Shown: positions 65-13,968 of the stretch, piece after piece
Position numbering within the stretch: the first letter of the stretch is position 1
Layout: each line of letters starts with the position of its first letter
From: an uncultured Candidatus Saccharibacteria bacterium
GTDB taxonomy: Bacteria; Patescibacteriota; Minisyncoccia; Phycocordibacterales; UBA9973
Length of the DNA stretch: 51,514 nucleotides
Assembly (NCBI GenBank): GCA_964356285.1
Contig: CAYHGI010000002.1
Coordinates: forward strand, 1 to 51,514
Direction of reading: 5' to 3'
The notes under the pieces: model-generated
Seen by the model: only the letters and a program-made list of their open reading frames with translations
What the model was told of the DNA's origin: nothing
Database searches by the model: none
Made by a program: the position numbers and the translations under genes

Positions 65-2248
65 ATGATTGAACTAAAAGATTACCAAAAACAAGCAGTA
101 GATAACCTTAGCAGGAAGGTAGAAAATTCCTTGCGTTCTTCGGAGAGCGAAATAGTAGTATTTCAAGCCCCTACTGGTTCAGGTAAAACAGTTATGGTCT
201 CTGCTCTTTTGAAAGAACTTATTAGCCGAAGAAAAGACGATAGAAAGTTTGCCTTTGTTTGGGTCTCGGTTCGTATGTTGCACAAGCAGAGCAAAGAAAA
301 ATTGGAGAGTTTTTATGAAGATGATAGGGCTATCAAATGTTCCTACTTTGATGATTTGGAAGACCGTAGAATTGGCGAAAACGAGGTTCTATTTATAAAT
401 TGGCACAGCATAAATAAAAAAGATATAAACCTTTTTGTTAAGGACAATGAGAAAGATAACAATTTAAGCAACATTATTAAAAATACGAAAGAAGAAGGGC
501 TCACTATAGTTTTAGTGATAGATGAAAGCCATCACACAGCAAACTCAGATAAGTCAAAAGAGCTTATTGAAATTATTAACCCGAAAATTACCTTAGAAGT
601 TTCTGCAACGCCTCACTTAACTGAGGGTGTGTCTGAAATAGAGAAAGTTCGTTTGGCAGATGTAAAAGCCGAAGAAATGATAAAGTCGGAAATTTTAGTA
701 AATCCTGAATTTCTAGATATTAAAATTGGTTCAAAAAGTGCTGATGAGATAGTGATAGAACAGGGCTTAAAAAAGAGAGAAGAACTATTGAAGATGTATA
801 AGAAAGAGGGTTCAAATGTAAACCCGCTTATGCTTATACAGCTTCCCGACAACAGAAGTAATTTGGTAAGTAAGAAGGAGGCAGTAGTAAAGATTTTAGA
901 GAAAAGAGGTATTACTGAAAAGAATGGCAAACTAGCTATATGGCTCTCGGAAGATAAATCGGACACCTTGCCCAACATTGAGAAGAACAACAATGAGGTT
1001 GAAGTCCTTGTCTTCAAGCAAGCCATCGCATTGGGCTGGGATTGCCCTAGAGCGTCCATATTGGCCATTTTCAGGGAGTCCAAGAGCTTTACCTTCACTA
1101 TTCAAACTATAGGCCGAATAATGCGTATGCCAGAGCTTAAATACTACCTAAAAGAACCTGACTTAAATCAGGGCTATGTCTTTACGAACTTACCAAACAT
1201 TGAAATTACCGAAGATTACGCTAAGGACTATTTAACTGTTTACGAAGCCAAACGAGACAATAAGTTATATAAAAACATTTCCTTGCCCTCAATTTATCTT
1301 AAACGCCAACGAGAAAGGACTCGTTTGTCAGGTGAGTTTGTTAAAACTTTCTTAACTCTAGCGGATAAGGAGAAAATAAAGAAATCAGTTAATCTTAAAC
1401 CCTCAAAAATAATAAATTCAATAATAGCCGAAGGTAAAATTGTAGATATAGATAAATCAGGTGAAATTGAACACAAGGGAGCAATAAAAATAACCCTAGA
1501 TGAAAAAGAGCTTCAAGAAAAGTTTGATACTTTCATTACTCAAAACTGCACTCCTTACGCACCTGCCGACTCAAGTGATAGATTGAAAACTGCAATTTAT
1601 CAATTTTTCAGTCAGGAATTTGATTTTGAAAAATATGACCCAGAGGTTCAAAAAATAGTTTTAGGAAAAGAAAATGCTCAGTTGTTTGTTAACACAATAA
1701 ATCTAGCTAAGGAAAAGTATAAAAAAGAAGTGGTTGAGAAACTAAGCGAGAAAAGAGAACTGCAAGATATGCCTAATTGGGAAGTGCCGATATTTACGAG
1801 TTATAACAGCAGGTATAAAAAAGAGGAACAAGCCCTTTCCATTATCAAGCCATTTTATACTGCAAAGCAGAGTGAGCCAGAAAAACAATTTATTGAGTTT
1901 CTAAATGCTTCTAAGAAAGTAAAATGGTGGTATAAAAATGGTGAAGCAGAAATAAAATTCTTTGCAATTTTAAGAGCTGATGACCGAGCTTTTTATCCTG
2001 ACTTTCTTATCCAATTCAAAGATGGAACTGTGGGTATTTTTGAGACAAAGAGTGGCTTTACGGCAGGTGAAGACGCTAAAGAACGAGCTGAGAGTTTGCA
2101 ACGATACATAAAGAAACAAAATAAATCTGGTAATAAACTAATTGGCGGTATAGCCGTCTATGTTAATGGAACTTGGAGATATAATGATAAAGAAAAATAC
2201 GATTATAATCCGAGTGATTTATCAAGCTGGAAAGTTCTTAGTTTATAA
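65..2248 (+). CDS. SF2 helicase-nuclease resembling a Type III restriction enzyme Res subunit
   Basis: 727-aa ORF. Helicase motif I 'APTGSGKT', motif II 'DESHH', motif VI-like 'QTIGRIMR'. C-terminal PD-(D/E)xK-like 'PDFLIQF..GIFETKSG'. A + strand frame ends with TAA at 16-18, so a truncated upstream partner gene is possible but cannot be assessed. Confidence 0.7.
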   Translation: MIELKDYQKQAVDNLSRKVENSLRSSESEIVVFQAPTGSGKTVMVSALLKELISRRKDDRKFAFVWVSVRMLHKQSKEKLESFYEDDRAIKCSYFDDLEDRRIGENEVLFINWHSINKKDINLFVKDNEKDNNLSNIIKNTKEEGLTIVLVIDESHHTANSDKSKELIEIINPKITLEVSATPHLTEGVSEIEKVRLADVKAEEMIKSEILVNPEFLDIKIGSKSADEIVIEQGLKKREELLKMYKKEGSNVNPLMLIQLPDNRSNLVSKKEAVVKILEKRGITEKNGKLAIWLSEDKSDTLPNIEKNNNEVEVLVFKQAIALGWDCPRASILAIFRESKSFTFTIQTIGRIMRMPELKYYLKEPDLNQGYVFTNLPNIEITEDYAKDYLTVYEAKRDNKLYKNISLPSIYLKRQRERTRLSGEFVKTFLTLADKEKIKKSVNLKPSKIINSIIAEGKIVDIDKSGEIEHKGAIKITLDEKELQEKFDTFITQNCTPYAPADSSDRLKTAIYQFFSQEFDFEKYDPEVQKIVLGKENAQLFVNTINLAKEKYKKEVVEKLSEKRELQDMPNWEVPIFTSYNSRYKKEEQALSIIKPFYTAKQSEPEKQFIEFLNASKKVKWWYKNGEAEIKFFAILRADDRAFYPDFLIQFKDGTVGIFETKSGFTAGEDAKERAESLQRYIKKQNKSGNKLIGGIAVYVNGTWRYNDKEKYDYNPSDLSSWKVLSL

Positions 2249-2300
2249 GGCCATAAAACAAGAGGTGGTTTCTCAAGCTATATCTTGGTATAATAATCGT

Positions 2301-3184: not shown

Positions 3185-4870
3185 TTAATGAGAGAATACT
3201 TCAGTTCCTTTCATTTCTAAAGGTAGCCCGCTAAATTGCAGTTCGCTCTTAATTGCACGCCAATTCAGGGTTCTAAACGCATCCAATAGCGGGAGCATTC
3301 TTGGACTTTTGAGGTAGATTTCCTCAATTTGTCTTTTGTTTTTATACATTTTAAGAGGTTCTAACTTTTTATTTTCAGCAACTACGGCTTTTAATGGTAG
3401 TAGTGTGTTTTCTGTGTCAATTACTAGGTTTTTATTCATAATTGAGAGGTGCGAACCTAATCTTGATAATATGTCTTTTTTCTCAAATTCACCTTTTTCA
3501 AACTTGGCTTTAGCATCTCTAGCAAAAGCATAAACCTCGTCAGCTTTTTTCATAAAAGCATCAACATCCTTACCCGTCTTGTTAAAAATATTTTCCCAGT
3601 GTAATTTTTCTGTTGTTAATGGCTCTTTACGCATTTTAAATTCTTCCTCTGTTATTTCTTGATTGGCTCGCATATCAATTAACCCAGATAATTTTTTCAA
3701 ACATTCCCTATACGCCTTATTTTGTATATCAAGGATAGATTCGGTTGCTTGGGCTTGCTTGGCATTTTCTTGCATAGACCATTTCAAAGCAAAATCGTGC
3801 AACTCTGGCGGTATATTAAGAGAATCAATTTCTTTCATTATTTGCTTTTCTAGTTCTTTTTGCTCAACACCTTTTTGAGAGCAGTTTGGATTTTTGCGAT
3901 GCGTGCAATGATAATAAATATATCTATGAATGTTGCCATTTAATTGCCTCTTAACCTTTTCTTCTGCCGTGATGCCAGATTTGCACTCTCCGCACTCCAT
4001 AAGCCCCGTAAAAGCGAATGTGTGCGTCTTGGGGCGAGGTCTGCCTTTTCTTCCGAGTAATAATTGAATCTTGTCGTATTCTTCCGATTTCATTAAAGGT
4101 TTATATGTTCCCTTATACCAAATGCCACTTCCTCTCGGATATTCAAACATCCCATAATACATAGGGTTGGTAAAAAGATAATAAATTGTATTTCGGCTCA
4201 TCTTTTTTCCATTAGGCATTCTGAAGCCCCATTCTTTACTTACAATTTTCCAGATTTTTAGCGGAGTATAAAGTCCCGTAAGCATCATATCAACCATTTT
4301 ACGAATCAAATCAAATCTCTCTGGGTCTGGGTATATCTGTTTTCTGCCTCGTTCTTCATACTTATTATTTTTATAACCAACGGGAGCGGGGGCTGGATAC
4401 ATTCCTTTTTCCGCTTTCGTCTTTAACCCTCTTTTAACATCTTCACCCTTGTTGTCATTTTCTAGTTTCGCTTGGCTACAAAACAAGTTAAGCAAAAATT
4501 TATCATTGGGGATGTTGCGAAACATTTGGCTTGGGGTTCTAACTTCAAGTAATTTTCCCTCATCCATTAAATAAACCACCTTGCCTGTATCTATTGAATT
4601 TCTTGAAATTCGGCTTGCGTTCCAAACCAAAAGTCCGTTGGCAAAGCCACTATCAATTTTTTTAGTCAGTTCTGCAAATTTAGGTCTGCCGAGTTTTTTT
4701 GCTGAATGCGATTCTTCTATTATTTCAACTATTTTTAGTTTTTCTCTTTTGGCTACATCTTCAAGTTCCTTTCTCTGTGATTCAATAGATAAAACTTGCC
4801 TATCTTCTTGCTCGGAAGATTTACGGCAATAAATAATATATTTAGCTGGTTGTTTAGTTTTGTTTTCCAT
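3185..4870 (-). CDS. large serine recombinase (resolvase/invertase N-domain + recombinase domain + zinc ribbon)
   Basis: 561 aa. N-terminal 'YIIYCRKSSEQEDRQVLSIESQ' is the catalytic Ser motif. Cys cluster 'CGECKSG...YYHCTHRKNPNC'. Coiled-coil C-terminus. Confidence 0.85.
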   Translation of the reverse strand: MENKTKQPAKYIIYCRKSSEQEDRQVLSIESQRKELEDVAKREKLKIVEIIEESHSAKKLGRPKFAELTKKIDSGFANGLLVWNASRISRNSIDTGKVVYLMDEGKLLEVRTPSQMFRNIPNDKFLLNLFCSQAKLENDNKGEDVKRGLKTKAEKGMYPAPAPVGYKNNKYEERGRKQIYPDPERFDLIRKMVDMMLTGLYTPLKIWKIVSKEWGFRMPNGKKMSRNTIYYLFTNPMYYGMFEYPRGSGIWYKGTYKPLMKSEEYDKIQLLLGRKGRPRPKTHTFAFTGLMECGECKSGITAEEKVKRQLNGNIHRYIYYHCTHRKNPNCSQKGVEQKELEKQIMKEIDSLNIPPELHDFALKWSMQENAKQAQATESILDIQNKAYRECLKKLSGLIDMRANQEITEEEFKMRKEPLTTEKLHWENIFNKTGKDVDAFMKKADEVYAFARDAKAKFEKGEFEKKDILSRLGSHLSIMNKNLVIDTENTLLPLKAVVAENKKLEPLKMYKNKRQIEEIYLKSPRMLPLLDAFRTLNWRAIKSELQFSGLPLEMKGTEVFSH

Positions 4871-6395: not shown

Positions 6396-6794
6396 TTAAT
6401 CCTTTTGGCATACTCCTAAATATTTATATATTTCTGTCCCGCAAATCTCGCAAATGCCTGTTTTTTGAAGTTGCTCTCGGTTCTCTTTACCTATTCTTTT
6501 CCCAGTTTTGATAGTCCGTTCGCTTCCTATTTTAGACACAACTGCTTTATGGCATTTGAAACAAAAAAATTCATTTTCTTCAAGATGTGTTTTTTTCTTG
6601 GCTTTTCTTTTTATAATAAAATCTTTTAAATCTGCTCCAATTACCAAAGGACTTACGCTTTCTTCAATAACCCTTAATCCCTCATTCTTAATCCAACGAC
6701 TGCAAGTTTTTCTATCTGTGCCAAATAAAAATGCCATTTCAGTTATGTTGTAGCTTCTTCTTGTTTGGATTTTGTGAATATTATAATTTGACAT
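6396..6794 (-). CDS. hypothetical HTH + zinc-ribbon protein
   Basis: 132 aa. N-terminal HTH-like 'ITEMAFLFGTDRKTCSRWIKNEG'. Two CxxC pairs: 'CFKCH' and 'CEICG'. Confidence 0.5.
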   Translation of the reverse strand: MSNYNIHKIQTRRSYNITEMAFLFGTDRKTCSRWIKNEGLRVIEESVSPLVIGADLKDFIIKRKAKKKTHLEENEFFCFKCHKAVVSKIGSERTIKTGKRIGKENREQLQKTGICEICGTEIYKYLGVCQKD

Positions 6795-9175: not shown

Positions 9176-11017
9176 ATGAAATTACAATTACAATCGGTAG
9201 TTAAAACTACCACAAATAATTTTGATACTGAAAGCGAAAATCAGTCCATTTTTGAACGGAATATACAAAGAGGTGTTGAGGCGGGTATAGTATCTTTTAA
9301 CGAAGATAAATCAAGAATAACCTACGCTTGCTCACGAGCTTATACAACGGGTTTTAAGAACCCAGAGGAAAAAGTTAGAGCTTCGTATTTTTGTGAGCTT
9401 GTGCTTGATTATAATTACCCAAAAGAGAAGATGGATTTTGAGGTATTAGTCCCTCGCCGAACCCCAGAGGATAGGGCTGATATTGTTATTTATGAAGATG
9501 AAGAATTAAAAACCCCCTACTTGGTAGTTGAAACAAAAAAAGATGGTATAACCGATGCGGAGTTTAAGCAAGCCATTGAGCAGGCGTTTGGCAACGCTAA
9601 CAGCATACGAGCCAAGCTCGCCTCTGTTGTCGCAGGAACTACTAAAACAGCTTTTGATGTTGCAGGATTTAAACCTAGCGAACGAGCAAAAAATGTTATT
9701 TCAGATATTCCTAAAAAATACGGCAAAACTCCCAAATATAGATTTATAAAGGGCGAAGCAGACAAAGAGTTAAAAACAGTTTCAAGGGACGAACTTATAA
9801 GGGCTTTGGAAAAAGCCCACGATACCGTTTGGCAAGGTGGAAGATTTGACCCGACAGACGCCTTTGACGAAGTTTCAAAACTCTTATTTTGCAAATTGAA
9901 AGACGAAAAAAATACTACCAAAGGAGACCCGTATTCTTTCCAAATAGGCACTCACGAATTACCAGAGGAAGTTTATAAAAGAATAAACGGCATTTACCAG
10001 AAAGCAAAAAAGGAGGACGCCGAAGTTTTTAAGGATGATATAAAATTAGAGCCGAAAGTTGTTTATAATGTAGTTGAGCATTTACAAACACTGGCAATAA
10101 ACAAAATTGATTTAGATACTAAAGGGGTCGCCTTTGAGGTATTTATGACAGATTTTTTCAAAGGCAAAATGGGGCAATTTTTTACGCCTCGTCCTATCAT
10201 ACAATTTTGCGTTAAGATGATGAATCCAGAAAAAGGCGAGCTAGTATTAGACCCAGCTTGCGGGAGCGGAGGATTTTTACTCAACGCTTTGGATTTTGTT
10301 AGAGAATATGCGAGTAAAAATTATGACGAGCAGGAAGCCAGAGACCATTGGCACGGCTTTGCCAAAGATAATTTATATGGCATTGAAATAAATGACAAAA
10401 TCGCCAGAGTTTGCAAAATGAATATGATTATCCACGATGATGGACATACCAATGTTATTAGCACGGACGCATTGGAAAATTTTGAAGATATAGAAAAAAT
10501 ACATCCTAAATTTGAAAAAGACCATTTTGACTTAATCCTTACCAATCCGCCTTTTGGAGCAACCATAAAAAGAACTGAAAAAGATTACTTGGATAAATAC
10601 AAATTGGGAGAGGATAAACCAAATCAGAAAACAGAGATTTTGTTTATTGAGCGTTGTATTGGCTTTGTGAAGCCCAAAACGGGCAGGATAGCGATTGTTT
10701 TACCAGACGGCATACTAACTAACTCCTCTCTGCAAAATGTAAGAGATTTCATAATGGAGCGTTGCCAGATTTTGGGAGTTGTATCTCTGCCCCAATTTGC
10801 TTTTGCTCATTTTGGAGCTGGAGTAAAATCTTCTTTGGTATTTTTGAGGAGAAAGGGAGAAAACGAAAGCATAAAAGATTACCCGATATTTATGTCTATT
10901 GCCGAACATATAGGGTATGACGCAACAGGAAGAGCGGACGCTAAAAATGATTTGGACACGATTTTTGATGAGTATAATAATTTCTTAAAAAATCCTAAAA
11001 ATTATGCAGGCATCTGA
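9176..11017 (+). CDS. N6-adenine DNA methyltransferase with an N-terminal PD-(D/E)xK nuclease-like domain (HsdM-like, or RM subunit of a BcgI-like Type IIB system)
   Basis: 613 aa. SAM motif 'VLDPACGSGGFL' and catalytic 'LTNPPFG'. The N-terminal ~150 aa contain 'RADIVIY...YLVVETKK' (D...ExK). Confidence 0.85.
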   Translation: MKLQLQSVVKTTTNNFDTESENQSIFERNIQRGVEAGIVSFNEDKSRITYACSRAYTTGFKNPEEKVRASYFCELVLDYNYPKEKMDFEVLVPRRTPEDRADIVIYEDEELKTPYLVVETKKDGITDAEFKQAIEQAFGNANSIRAKLASVVAGTTKTAFDVAGFKPSERAKNVISDIPKKYGKTPKYRFIKGEADKELKTVSRDELIRALEKAHDTVWQGGRFDPTDAFDEVSKLLFCKLKDEKNTTKGDPYSFQIGTHELPEEVYKRINGIYQKAKKEDAEVFKDDIKLEPKVVYNVVEHLQTLAINKIDLDTKGVAFEVFMTDFFKGKMGQFFTPRPIIQFCVKMMNPEKGELVLDPACGSGGFLLNALDFVREYASKNYDEQEARDHWHGFAKDNLYGIEINDKIARVCKMNMIIHDDGHTNVISTDALENFEDIEKIHPKFEKDHFDLILTNPPFGATIKRTEKDYLDKYKLGEDKPNQKTEILFIERCIGFVKPKTGRIAIVLPDGILTNSSLQNVRDFIMERCQILGVVSLPQFAFAHFGAGVKSSLVFLRRKGENESIKDYPIFMSIAEHIGYDATGRADAKNDLDTIFDEYNNFLKNPKNYAGI

Positions 11018-12398
11018 TGTAAAAAATAAATGCTTTGTAGTTTGGAGCAATAAAGTTGAGGGTAGATTTGACCCTCATTTTTACAAACCAGATTTTTCAT
11101 TGTTAGAAAAAAAACTTAAAAAAATAAATCACTCAACTTTTGGTGATGTTATTAAGTTTTCAAACGAGATTTGGAACGGCAAGGATTTTTTTACAGAAAA
11201 ATTTCCCTACATAGAAATAAGCGAAATTGATATACATACTGGGGAGATAAAAGACATAATCTACTATGAAAAATCCGAAGCTCCCAGTCGTGCAAAAATG
11301 ATAGTAAGAAATAATGACATAATTGTTTCAACCACTAGACCCCATAGAGGAGCGATTGCTTTTATAGATAATTCAAAAGACGGCTTCATCGCCTCAACGG
11401 GTTTTGCCGTATTGAGAGATTTGAAAAATAAAGAAGTTGATAAAAATTATCTTTTTTATATTTTAAGAACTAGTTTCATATTAGACCAGATGTTGCAGAG
11501 AAGTAGCGGAGGCAATTATCCAGCAATAACAGCCGAAGAATTGAAGAAAATAATTATACCTCTTCCGCCGATAGAAACTCAAAATAAAATCGTTGAGATA
11601 ATGCAGTCGGCTTACGAGAAAAAAGCAAGCAAGGAACAGGAAGCAGAAAGTGTTTTTAATTCCATTGATGATTATATTTTAGGAGAATTAGGTATAAAAA
11701 TGCCACAGGCGAAAGATAAGGAATGTTTTAGTGTTAGTTCTCAAGAAATTGGTAGTGGTAGATTGGATTGTTATTATTACCAGCCAAAATTTAAGGAGGG
11801 AGAAAAATCTTTGAAAAAAGCGGATTGCAAGGTTGAACCCTTAAAAAATTACATTACAAAAATACATTATGGAGCGTCCCTTAAAAATATCTATGTTGAT
11901 GAGGGCATACCATTATTGAGAATACAAAACTTAAAACCAAACAGGATAGTTTTAGACGATGTGGTTATGGTTTCCGAAACGAGAAGAAAGGAATTAGGCA
12001 ACGCCTTTGTGAGTGAGGGCGACTTGCTTATTTCAAGAAGCGGAAGCGTTGGTATAGTTTCTGTTGTGCCAAAAGAAGCAGAGGGTTTTGCGTTTGGTTC
12101 TTTTATGATTAAGTTTTGTCTAAACGATAAAATAGATAAAGATTTTGTTTCTGTATGGCTTAATAATAAAATATCCCAGTTATTTATTAAACGAGAGAAA
12201 ATCGGGGCTATACAGGGCAATATAACGATTGAGACCATTGAGAACTTACAGATACCAACTCCACCATTAGCAACTCAAAAGAAATTGGCGGGAGAGGTTA
12301 AAGAACGATTAGCCCAAGTAAAAAAAATAAATGCAGAAGCCCAAGATGAAATTGAGAAGGCAAAATTTTTTGTTGAAAATTTAATAGTTAAAAAATAA
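11004..12398 (+). CDS. hsdS: restriction-modification specificity (S) subunit with two target-recognition domains
   Basis: 464 aa. Duplicated architecture with two conserved helical spacers: 'IPLPPIETQNKIVEIM' and 'IPTPPLATQKKLAGEV'. Overlaps the methyltransferase stop by 14 nt. Confidence 0.85.
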   Translation: MQASDVKNKCFVVWSNKVEGRFDPHFYKPDFSLLEKKLKKINHSTFGDVIKFSNEIWNGKDFFTEKFPYIEISEIDIHTGEIKDIIYYEKSEAPSRAKMIVRNNDIIVSTTRPHRGAIAFIDNSKDGFIASTGFAVLRDLKNKEVDKNYLFYILRTSFILDQMLQRSSGGNYPAITAEELKKIIIPLPPIETQNKIVEIMQSAYEKKASKEQEAESVFNSIDDYILGELGIKMPQAKDKECFSVSSQEIGSGRLDCYYYQPKFKEGEKSLKKADCKVEPLKNYITKIHYGASLKNIYVDEGIPLLRIQNLKPNRIVLDDVVMVSETRRKELGNAFVSEGDLLISRSGSVGIVSVVPKEAEGFAFGSFMIKFCLNDKIDKDFVSVWLNNKISQLFIKREKIGAIQGNITIETIENLQIPTPPLATQKKLAGEVKERLAQVKKINAEAQDEIEKAKFFVENLIVKK

Positions 12399-12404
12399 AA
12401 TAAG

Positions 12405-12890
12405 TTGAAAAAGCAACGAGAGATAATAACTGAAGATTTTGTCCAAAATAGTTTAATAAAGTATCTTAAAATTAACGGATGGAGTAAATCATTACAAAGT
12501 GCTGAATTGTGGGAACAAGGTGTAGACATAAAAGTTCGCAATAATAAGTTTGCAAGATATTGGCTTATTGAAGCTAAAGGTGACCCTTCTATAAAAGTAA
12601 AAAGTCCTGCGGGAAGTCAAAGCAGTAGTTTTAATTCTGCCGTTGGACAAATCATTACAAGGATGCACCGAAATGGCATACGAGGTTATAAGTATGGCTA
12701 TAAATATGGTGTTGCTTTTCCTATCTCTTTCAAAAAGATGGTATTAAGGAAAATACCTTTTGATGTTATGGATAAACTGAACCTTTATCTTTTTTTTGTA
12801 AATAATTTTGGTAATGTTGAAGAAATAGATTGGAAAAATTTGAGGGATATAATGAAGCTGAAAAAACAAAATATTTTATTGAAAATCTGA
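12405..12890 (+). CDS. hypothetical protein with a PD-(D/E)xK-like motif
   Basis: 161 aa with a TTG start. 'GVDIKV...YWLIEAKGD' fits D-(x)n-E-x-K. It starts 7 nt after the hsdS stop. Confidence 0.45.
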   Translation: MKKQREIITEDFVQNSLIKYLKINGWSKSLQSAELWEQGVDIKVRNNKFARYWLIEAKGDPSIKVKSPAGSQSSSFNSAVGQIITRMHRNGIRGYKYGYKYGVAFPISFKKMVLRKIPFDVMDKLNLYLFFVNNFGNVEEIDWKNLRDIMKLKKQNILLKI

Positions 12891-12925
12891 TAGCAGAAAA
12901 ATAAAAAATGTGATAGGGTAAGAAA

Positions 12926-13348
12926 ATGGCAAAATATGAGGATTTAAAAACGATTACGGATGCGAGATTGCAAACTATTCAAACCCTAATTGATGCAAAA
13001 GATTGGGATATGACAGCTTATATGATGGGTTGTGTCCTTGAATATGCACTGAAAGCGACAGCTTGCAAAACCCTTTCTTTGTCCAGTTATCCGCCAGTAA
13101 AATCTAAAAAAATTGAAACTTTTTTTAGAACTCACGAATTTGACTCATTATTGATAATCTCTGGTTTATTGGATATATTTGGTTCTGGGGGCAGTTTCTT
13201 TGGTAATTGGTCGGCTTTTACGCAGGAATACTTGGGTCAATGGACAGAAATAAGGTTTGAGGTAGGGGGTAAGTGGGATGAAATTAAAACTAATAGTGTG
13301 TATAATGAATTAAAGGTCTTAATTAGCGAAATCAAAAAAAGATGGTAG
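12926..13348 (+). CDS. HEPN-like domain protein
   Basis: 140 aa. 'GCVLEYALKATACK' and 'FFRTHEFDSLL' resemble the canonical HEPN helices (AvEkaLKAll ... rTHdLeeLl). Confidence 0.5.
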   Translation: MAKYEDLKTITDARLQTIQTLIDAKDWDMTAYMMGCVLEYALKATACKTLSLSSYPPVKSKKIETFFRTHEFDSLLIISGLLDIFGSGGSFFGNWSAFTQEYLGQWTEIRFEVGGKWDEIKTNSVYNELKVLISEIKKRW

Positions 13349-13701
13349 AAAAATTTAAAGAAATATTAAAAAAAATAGAGGAAGCAAAAGGAAAAGTAAT
13401 CTTATTTGCCATCATAAAAACGGATGATTTAAGTGATAAATGGTCTGTGATTTTTTCTGCTGATTGGGCAAAAACTGATAAGAGAGACGAAGTTTTTAAT
13501 TTTCTTGAAGATTTATTTAAAAAAACACTTACACAAGAAGAACATCAGTCAATAGCTAGAATAGGTATTTATATGAGAGATGATTATGTTGTAAAATCTC
13601 TTTTGGTGTTTAAAAAAGATTTTGTTATAAAAGAGGAAACAAAAGTTAATGGTTTTACAACACACGAGGGGTATATTATAGAATCAAATTCCAGTAATTA
13701 A
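13342..13701 (+). CDS. hypothetical protein translationally coupled to the HEPN-like gene
   Basis: 119 aa. Its start ATG overlaps the upstream stop (ATGGTAG). No nucleotidyltransferase (MNT) motif was seen. Confidence 0.5.
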   Translation: MVEKFKEILKKIEEAKGKVILFAIIKTDDLSDKWSVIFSADWAKTDKRDEVFNFLEDLFKKTLTQEEHQSIARIGIYMRDDYVVKSLLVFKKDFVIKEETKVNGFTTHEGYIIESNSSN

Positions 13702-13703
13702 AC

Positions 13704-13736
13704 AGCTAAACTATACCAAATTGCGGTTCTAGTATT
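13704..13736 (+). repeat. imperfect direct repeat, copy A (partner at 13899-13940)
   Basis: AGCTAAAC..CCAAAT(T)GCGGTTCTA(GT)ATTG. It begins directly after the stop codon at 13701. Confidence 0.6.
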
Positions 13737-13824
13737 GCCGTGATAGAATATAAAAATGTTAATTATGGGGACAAAAAGAAGAGGATAGATTTTTTAAACC
13801 ACTTTTGAGTGGTTGTATCTTCTT

Positions 13825-13896
13825 GCCCCTGTAAGTTAATGGATAGACTAACTTGGTTCTAACGAGAAAATAGAGGTTCAATTCCTCTCGGGGGCA
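13825..13896 (+). tRNA. tRNA-Arg (anticodon TCT)
   Basis: Folded by hand. Acceptor GCCCCTG/CGGGGGC (one T.G pair). D-arm AGTT/GACT with a GG loop. Anticodon stem CTTG/CGAG (A.A at the top), loop GTTCTAA. T-arm AGAGG-TTCAATT-CCTCT. Discriminator A. CCA is not encoded. Confidence 0.7.
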
Positions 13897-13898
13897 CT

Positions 13899-13940
13899 AG
13901 CTAAACGACTAAACTCCGCCAAATAGCGGTTCTAACATTG
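13899..13940 (+). repeat. imperfect direct repeat, copy B (partner at 13704-13736)
   Basis: AGCTAAAC(gactaaactccg)CCAAAT(A)GCGGTTCTA(AC)ATTG. It starts 3 nt after the tRNA 3' end. Confidence 0.6.
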
Positions 13941-13968
13941 TCCAAAGCCCAGAGCCAAAAACAAAAAA

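Follow-up and report, generated by a model that had tools for sequence, protein, structure and literature searches.

Two probably independent modules downstream of a restriction-modification operon in a candidate bacterium: an XisH-like nuclease-fold protein and a mobile HEPN-T cassette with a predicted antidote

Three small genes directly follow the S gene of a restriction-modification (R-M) operon in a 51,514-nucleotide stretch of DNA from an uncultured Candidatus Saccharibacteria bacterium (contig CAYHGI010000002.1; the whole stretch is hereafter the window), and the question that this locus raises is whether they form an accessory unit of that operon. The initial annotation of the sequence described a 161-aa PD-(D/E)xK-like protein (gene 1), a 140-aa HEPN-like protein (gene 2) and a translationally coupled 119-aa partner (gene 3), and suggested that they could be either an undescribed HEPN toxin with a non-MNT antitoxin or a three-gene defense add-on. 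All three open reading frames (ORFs), with the peptides quoted from them, were found after the S gene (Table 1), and all three are subject to purifying selection at the protein level; no published description of either the 161-aa family or the HEPN/partner pair was found in the literature. Comparison with relatives in other genomes and metagenomes makes it probable that these genes represent two independent modules placed side by side, namely an R-M-linked accessory protein with an XisH-like nuclease fold and a mobile, toxin-antitoxin (TA)-like cassette that consists of a HEPN-T protein and its partner.

The evidence that carries this reading is the separate distribution of the two modules. 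The gene 1 family is represented in none of the 80 other loci that contain the HEPN/partner pair, and the pair is found in none of the eight other contexts of gene 1, so that the proposal of a three-gene module has to be abandoned; in L001, what lies upstream of the pair is a gene that bears no relation to the 161-aa protein. A survey of 76 distinct pair loci showed that the 150 nearest ORFs match 145 different Pfam families. The most common family among these neighbors is ResIII (six cases, some of which are apparently UvrB or DEAD-type helicases), N6_N4_Mtase and Resolvase occur twice each, and Methylase_S and N6_Mtase are outside the 25 most common neighbor families. The pair therefore lacks a conserved link to R-M, which makes a dependence on R-M of the kind known for PrrC and RloC unlikely, and its location next to the R-M genes and gene 1 in the window is best read as chance co-location within an island.

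Genes 2 and 3 themselves form a conserved coupled pair, as became apparent from the survey of gene neighborhoods that the initial annotation had called for. Among 80 metagenome loci that were fetched with the partner alignment, 77 encode a HEPN-like protein directly upstream of the partner; two of the exceptions are cut by contig ends and the third is L081. The same order, with the HEPN-like gene immediately 5' of the partner gene, is seen in every testable locus of a separate set of genomes and contigs. The coupling through ATGGTAG had been correctly recognized in the window, and the identical 7-nt overlap is present in most of the 77 loci, which accounts for two invariant features, the tryptophan at the C-terminus of the HEPN protein and the MVE with which the partner begins. 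The distance matrices of the two proteins are correlated (r=0.66, Mantel 0/2000, 63 distinct pairs) and their mean distances are nearly the same (0.55 and 0.56), with ratios of nonsynonymous to synonymous differences (pN/pS) of 0.10-0.43 for both genes and pS close to saturation. Altogether, the pair has the gene organization expected of a TA system: two small, co-oriented, coupled genes that stay together in varied contexts. The sole testable locus without a HEPN gene upstream of the partner, L081 (437-1031), contains in its place a 78-aa fragment resembling the N-terminus of an integrase and a tRNA-Gly gene, which suggests that this cassette has been rearranged or has decayed.

The boundaries of the cassette are seen at the DNA level, where homology extends from about 45 nt before the HEPN start to just past the partner stop. 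Several cassettes adjoin tRNA genes or integrases. All genome matches of the pair belong to Patescibacteria and none was found in viral contigs. Word-based searches retrieved few clusters, only 12 of gene 2 and 18 of gene 3, and these are located on the same contigs. The cassette in L009 (6448-15425) comes right after a tyrosine integrase, within a defense-type island that also encodes a KAP NTPase, a DUF4145 protein and SLFN_AlbA_2.

The genomic contexts of gene 1 are of a different kind. Nine independent contexts, including the window, were surveyed, and in seven of these a DNA-targeting defense operon ends with gene 1 in the same orientation; the operon can be Type I, Type III, M+S or Type II/Shedu-like (Table 1); the downstream neighbors are different in every context. 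The gene 1 family in Patescibacteria is a terminal, often translationally coupled cistron of DNA-targeting defense operons. Its relatives comprise more than 314 clusters at 70-97% identity in a collection of 5.8 billion proteins; those with a named source are hypothetical proteins of Nomurabacteria, Gracilibacteria, Paceibacterota and other Patescibacteria, and the only one in a viral contig belongs to the same element as L018. In L013 (854-6997), an OLD-family gene (AAA_15 and TOPRIM domains) is embedded between mod and res of a Type III operon, with a 151-aa nuclease gene next in order. The operon in L116 (3378-6940) encodes a C-protein-like helix-turn-helix (HTH) protein, an EcoRI-type methylase, a GmrSD_N+HNH protein and a Shedu-like SduA_C nuclease, the terminal gene being the conserved small nuclease.

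As modeled by AlphaFold (AF2), the gene 1 product is a stand-alone protein of the PD-(D/E)xK fold that belongs to an unnamed, XisH-like family, in agreement with the initial annotation. The model (predicted local distance difference test, pLDDT, 78; predicted template modeling score, pTM, 0.77) contains an alpha-beta-beta-beta-alpha-beta core, with D41 on the strand 40-46, E56 on the strand 52-57 and K58 directly after it, which is the arrangement expected of a PD-(D/E)xK core. The alignment of 32 family members includes 50 invariant columns, among them E10, D41, E56, K58 and Q82, and the intact E10/D41/E56-x-K58/Q82 set is the classic constellation of this superfamily. The TTG start of the gene is supported by its homologues, which begin with MKKxREIITEDF. 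The top Foldseek matches in the PDB are the XisH structures 2okf and 2inb (prob 1.0, E 1.7e-3, TM scores 0.49/0.59), followed by Cap4, MspJI, FokI, Kpn2I, tRNA-splicing endonuclease and HamA, all of which are proteins with the restriction-endonuclease fold. No meaningful sequence match was obtained in Pfam, NCBIfam, PADLOC or PHROGs; the XisH profile (PF08814) recognized 0/32 members at E<=10, and only faint matches to Mrr_cat and NOV_C were seen. Comparison of eight independent copies gave pN of 0.07-0.22 against saturated pS of 0.5-0.9, and therefore the gene is old and under strong purifying selection, with no recent spread. The conserved residues and the predicted core indicate that the protein is probably an active nuclease. 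It could function as an accessory DNase whose target is some generic end or structure of DNA and which might, for instance, process DNA that the restriction enzyme has engaged or finish its cleavage; a generic substrate, or a conserved host partner, would fit better than a specific R-M subunit because the sequence is nearly constant while the R-M types vary.

Table 1. Features of the window and of loci that carry relatives of its genes or of the adjacent ~40-nt element
Locus	Feature	Position	Strand	Distance from preceding gene	Remark
Window	Large serine recombinase (561 aa)	3185-4870	-		Upstream in the island of the window
Window	M (613 aa, HSDR_N_2 + N6_Mtase) and S (Methylase_S, two target recognition domains) genes	9176-12398	+		Operon upstream of gene 1
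Window	Gene 1, 161-aa protein of predicted PD-(D/E)xK fold	12405-12890	+	+6 nt	ORF with TTG start, after S gene
Window	Gene 2, 140-aa divergent HEPN-T (PF05168-type) protein, predicted toxin/RNase	12926-13348	+		ORF, family-level profile match
Window	ATGGTAG overlap of genes 2 and 3, 7 nt	13342-13348	+		Partner start within last codons (W, stop) of HEPN gene
Window	Gene 3, 119-aa partner, undescribed family, predicted antidote	13342-13701	+		ORF
Window	~40-nt element, copy A, partial (truncated)	13704-13740	+		Follows the cassette
Window	tRNA-Arg(tct)	13825-13897	+		124 nt 3' of gene 3, between the two copies of the ~40-nt element
Window	~40-nt element, copy B, full	13899-13945	+		Directly after tRNA-Arg
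L021	~40-nt element	2225-2280			
L040	~40-nt element	3385-3440			
L028	~40-nt element	~3420-3480			
L022	~40-nt element	~6480-6540			
L027	~40-nt element	~670-720			
L075	~40-nt element	~3450-3510			
L013	Gene 1 homologue after Type III mod / OLD-like / res			+3 nt	
L113	Gene 1 homologue after Type III-like methylase / res			+4 nt	
L107	Gene 1 homologue after Type I hsdR			1-nt overlap	
L111	Gene 1 homologue after truncated ORF			+7 nt	Truncated ORF is an HsdR C-terminus (EcoEI_R_C, E 2e-26)
L015	Gene 1 homologue at the end of a Type I operon (S, Bro-N, HsdR, YgjP-like, RadC)			4-nt overlap	
L116-L121	Gene 1 homologue after HTH / EcoRI-methylase / GmrSD_N-HNH / SduA_C operon			+60 nt	
L018 (= viral-labelled L115)	Gene 1 homologue				Convergent with gene adjoining large serine recombinase and Type I system
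L109	Gene 1 homologue alone				Shedu-like gene 0.8 kb off

Judging from profile matches, the gene 2 product is at the family level a divergent HEPN-T protein. PF05168 is matched by 39 of the 46 family members (best E 3.5e-9) and by 9/12 close relatives, and HEPN_AbiV by 5/46; PADLOC, NCBIfam and PHROGs yielded just phrog_5737, a family of unknown function. The HEPN assignment made in the initial annotation thus stands for the family, but the segment 'FRTHEFDSLL', on which it was partly based, is not a canonical HEPN motif: R68-x-H70 has the wrong spacing for Rx4-6H, and R68 is variable while H70 is conserved. Across the 46 sequences, E39, K43, C47, Y55, P56, F67, H70 and G80 are invariant, and R110, Y111, W95, S96 and W140 are nearly so. 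Many HEPN-T proteins lack the histidine of Rx4-6H, and the AF0298-like HEPN-T and AbiV proteins contain Ex3[KR] in helix 2, a retained basic residue and a second, strongly conserved histidine located after helix 2 and before helix 3, by which an alternative RNase site could be formed (PMC3710099). E39-x3-K43 together with H70 conforms to this AF0298/AbiV type of Ex3[KR] with an alternative histidine. At residue 111 (13256-13258), the protein from the window and its closest relative, P0002, have phenylalanine, and over 90% of the family has tyrosine, which forms an R-Y pair with the preceding residue; the conserved tyrosine of Class II HEPN proteins has been considered a possible AMPylation site (Yao et al., PMC7641770).

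The partner protein has no match in Pfam or NCBIfam (both at E<=1), PADLOC or PHROGs, and an exhaustive profile search with its family brought together 849 clusters (50% identity, E<=1e-3), of which 184 reach E<=1e-10. Its AF2 model (pLDDT 87.7) is composed of alpha1, beta1, a short turn, beta2, alpha2, alpha3, beta3, alpha4 and beta4; a fold search of BFVD returned nothing useful. The initial annotation rightly noted that the nucleotidyltransferase motif of MNT is missing: among 150 representatives of the family, GSX10DXD is absent, the equivalent positions being A23 and D32-K33-W34 with 7 residues between, and the nearly invariant residues are W34 (146/150), R73, N103 and G104. This motif is needed for MntA to AMPylate and neutralize HepT, and it is retained even in the MNT proteins of Class II (PF05168) modules (Yao et al., PMC7641770); neutralization by AMPylation is therefore not expected here. 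From its sequence and model, the partner could be an MNT derivative that has degenerated and become inactive, or else a small alpha/beta protein with no relationship to MNT. We propose that the HEPN protein would cleave RNA as the toxin of a TA or abortive-infection pair and that the partner would neutralize it by stoichiometric binding. Two other kinds of antidote were considered and rejected. An active MNT is contradicted by the lack of GSX10DXD, and an antitoxin made of RNA alone, which has been reported for AbiV, does not agree with a partner that is a conserved protein and evolves under purifying selection. All the fetched loci were searched for bona fide MNT genes that could have provided a reference for comparing profiles, and none was found. 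The long members of the partner family include no fusion with HEPN, their extensions being octapeptide repeats. In particular, the distant members P0237, P0298, P0277, P0256 and P0259 carry C-terminal arrays of the octapeptide 'INPxYNxT' followed by a beta-rich tail, and P0255 has a SEC-C zinc motif at its end; none of these extensions gave a match to a Pfam domain.

Several findings weigh against the two-module reading or the activities that it ascribes to the three proteins. The gene 2 product of the window reaches only E 0.15 and 12.7 bits with PF05168, under the 22-bit cut-off; the canonical Rx4-6H is absent from its family, with no histidine 4-6 residues after R110; and toxicity has never been demonstrated for HEPN proteins of Class II (PF05168; PMC7641770). 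The partner contains no DNA-binding domain for autoregulation, and its top PDB fold matches, the MNT chains of HEPN-MNT complexes (7ae2_B, 7ae9_F/H/E/G and 6m6v_A), are weak (E 1.5e-2 to 0.2, TM 0.32-0.47), with generic alpha/beta domains such as the C-terminal domain of CzcD/MamM and BolA matching about equally well. Profile searches of the PDB sequences with all three families gave noise only. With respect to gene 1, R-M genes are absent within 7 kb of the homologue in L109, a large serine recombinase lies 1-8 kb from the gene in the window, L018/L115 and L111, in line with an XisH analogy, and conservation as strong as this is unusual for a defense effector. Some of these findings would be accommodated if the HEPN protein and its partner were a non-toxic two-subunit complex derived from Class II HEPN/MNT, in which the HEPN subunit binds a ligand or RNA and the partner is a regulatory pseudo-enzyme. 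Apart from the missing Rx4-6H, this possibility is favored by the phenylalanine that the window protein has in place of the nearly invariant Y111 and by the equal rates at which both proteins diverge, and HEPN proteins without the motif may be non-catalytic, the Class II modules being untested (PMC3710099, PMC7641770). Nevertheless, E39, K43, H70 and R110, the residues of the proposed alternative RNase site, are invariant or nearly so, and a mobile, compact, overlapping cassette that occurs in unrelated contexts, often next to tRNAs, integrases and defense genes, is typical of TA systems, so we consider a non-toxic complex unlikely. Far less credit can be given to the view that R-M is functionally supplemented by all three genes, or by the HEPN pair, as a PrrC/RloC-type backup module for abortive infection, which the R-M proteins would restrain and which would be freed when restriction is blocked. 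The genes adjoin M and S in the same orientation, a terminator-like site was not found from S to the partner gene, and HEPN-T genes are known to cluster occasionally with R-M operons (PMC3710099); however, the neighbors of the pair in the 76 distinct loci are unrelated, gene 1 never accompanies the pair elsewhere, and the HEPN protein, at 140 aa, has neither the regulatory ABC-ATPase domain of PrrC and RloC nor Rx4-6H. The backup role suggested in the initial annotation is, accordingly, extremely improbable.

Two further alternatives concern gene 1, for which the two-module reading supposes a role associated with restriction. XisH and XisI reportedly control XisF, a large serine recombinase, and gene 1 might by analogy encode an excision or directionality cofactor of the large serine recombinase of the island rather than a partner of restriction. 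The XisH family provides the nearest structures, large serine recombinases are encoded in the island of the window, 1 kb off in L018/L115 and 2 kb off in L111, and a DUF5659 gene is present in L113. On the other side, the Pfam XisH model matches none of the 32 members at E<=10, an XisI-like neighbor is seen in none of the contexts, no recombinase was found within 7 kb in L013, L015, L107, L109, L113 and L116, and the start-stop overlaps with hsdR or genes of res operons argue for membership in R-M operons, which leaves a recombinase cofactor rather improbable. Alternatively, gene 1 could be a conserved chromosomal housekeeping gene involved in repair that flanks a hotspot for the insertion of defense cassettes, which would agree with the very strong conservation of the protein at saturated synonymous sites and with the diversity of the defense systems upstream. 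This explanation, too, appears very improbable: the downstream neighbors vary in every context, some 300 clusters in the 5.8-billion-protein collection imply a patchy rather than universal distribution, the 1-4 nt overlaps with the upstream defense gene in L015 and L107 would be hard to produce by repeated insertion, and in the window gene 1, the recombinase and M/S all lie to one side of tRNA-Arg, which places gene 1 apparently within the island.

A short element adjoins the cassette. It is about 40 nt long, with the consensus ...TGCGGTTCTAACATCGTCCA..GCCCaCAGCaA, and is present in the window as a truncated copy after the cassette and a full copy next to the tRNA gene. Such an element follows the partner gene in approximately 7/74 distinct cassettes, compared to about 1.4 expected by chance, and the related copies in the six other loci (Table 1) are located 20-110 nt past the partner stop. 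No Rfam family corresponds to it. The element may be an att-type or other recombination site, or else a 3' cis site of the cassette.

The surroundings in the window are those of a mobile island, as follows from the presence, upstream of the three genes, of the large serine recombinase and of a tyrosine integrase encoded on the minus strand ahead of the M and S genes. No HsdR was found near M and S. At its N-terminus, the methyltransferase has a nuclease-like HSDR_N_2 domain (E 1.4e-13), and it is followed by an S subunit only, without an HsdR translocase; the best NCBIfam matches, MAD2 and MAD5, are far under the cut-offs of these models. Matches to a promoter-like consensus are located at 12373-12401, before the TTG of gene 1, and at 13278-13306, in the 3' end of the HEPN gene just before the partner start. 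The region contains 22 such matches, which is not above the shuffle expectation of 17.0 (sd 4.5), so these two sites are a mere lead for separate transcription. The stretch was detected in groundwater DNA metagenomes only, with no RNA run among them.

It is possible, though rather unlikely, that both modules represent undescribed classes, the 119-aa family being an MNT-derived pseudo-enzyme turned binding antidote of HEPN-T and the XisH-like nuclease a general, strongly constrained accessory of restriction enzymes, chiefly of the translocating Types I and III, in Patescibacteria. Of the predicted TA families, HEPN/MNT is regarded as the most abundant. If the former proposal is true, the 119-aa antidote would define a new, widespread type of HEPN TA or abortive-infection system and offer the first functional handle on Class II HEPN. 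A cassette of this kind would show whether PF05168 HEPN proteins have RNase activity and by what means, other than AMPylation, they are silenced. An XisH-like nuclease of the proposed kind might act on restricted DNA, processing or degrading it, in lineages in which nucleases of the RecBCD type may be missing. The near-invariance of gene 1 amid changing restriction types is rare and points either to a common step downstream of restriction in ultra-small bacteria or to a mobile-element cofactor. Neither family has a database model, and thousands of Patescibacteria genes would be better annotated if both were defined.

Among the known systems, the closest counterpart of gene 1 is XisH (PF08814; 2okf, 2inb), the excision controlling factor of the fdxN element in Anabaena/Nostoc. 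Both are stand-alone proteins of about 130-160 aa with the PD-(D/E)xK fold, and XisH is the best structural match of gene 1; unlike XisH, gene 1 shows no sequence match to the XisH model, has no XisI neighbor and is associated with R-M and defense rather than with a developmental excision element. The resemblance of gene 2 to PrrC and RloC consists in the adjacency of a predicted HEPN-type RNase to hsd genes in the window, whereas gene 2 encodes a single 140-aa domain without ABC-ATPase or Rx4-6H and shows no R-M linkage across the 76 loci. With AF0298-like HEPN-T and AbiV (PMC3710099), the gene 2 family shares Ex3K, the alternative histidine and the retained arginine, in addition to the HEPN_AbiV matches of a few members. 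The lactococcal AbiV is reportedly neutralized by RNA, the abiV2 transcript (bioRxiv 10.1101/2024.05.05.592566), in contrast to the conserved protein partner, itself under purifying selection, that is encoded in the cassette.

Class II HEPN/MNT modules, which combine a PF05168 HEPN with a PF01909 MNT, were predicted by Makarova and Koonin and named by Yao et al. 2020 (PMC7641770). Like these, the cassette consists of two small adjacent genes, is mobile and of TA-like size, and encodes a PF05168 HEPN without RX4HXY, and the best, albeit weak, PDB fold match of the partner is to MNT antitoxins. It differs from them in that the partner has neither a PF01909 match nor GSX10DXD and possesses its own invariant set of W34, R73, N103 and G104, and also in the gene order, with HEPN first and a 7-nt overlap. 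The type VII systems of the HepT/MntA kind (Class I; Shewanella SO_3166/SO_3165 and Aphanizomenon HEPN/MNT, 6m6v and 7ae2) likewise combine a HEPN protein with a small alpha/beta protein; in the cassette, however, the HEPN protein lacks RX4HXY and, in the window, has phenylalanine at the Y111 position, and the partner lacks the catalytic carboxylates. By analogy, HepT/MntA, an RNase with its neutralizer, is the likely model for how the cassette acts.

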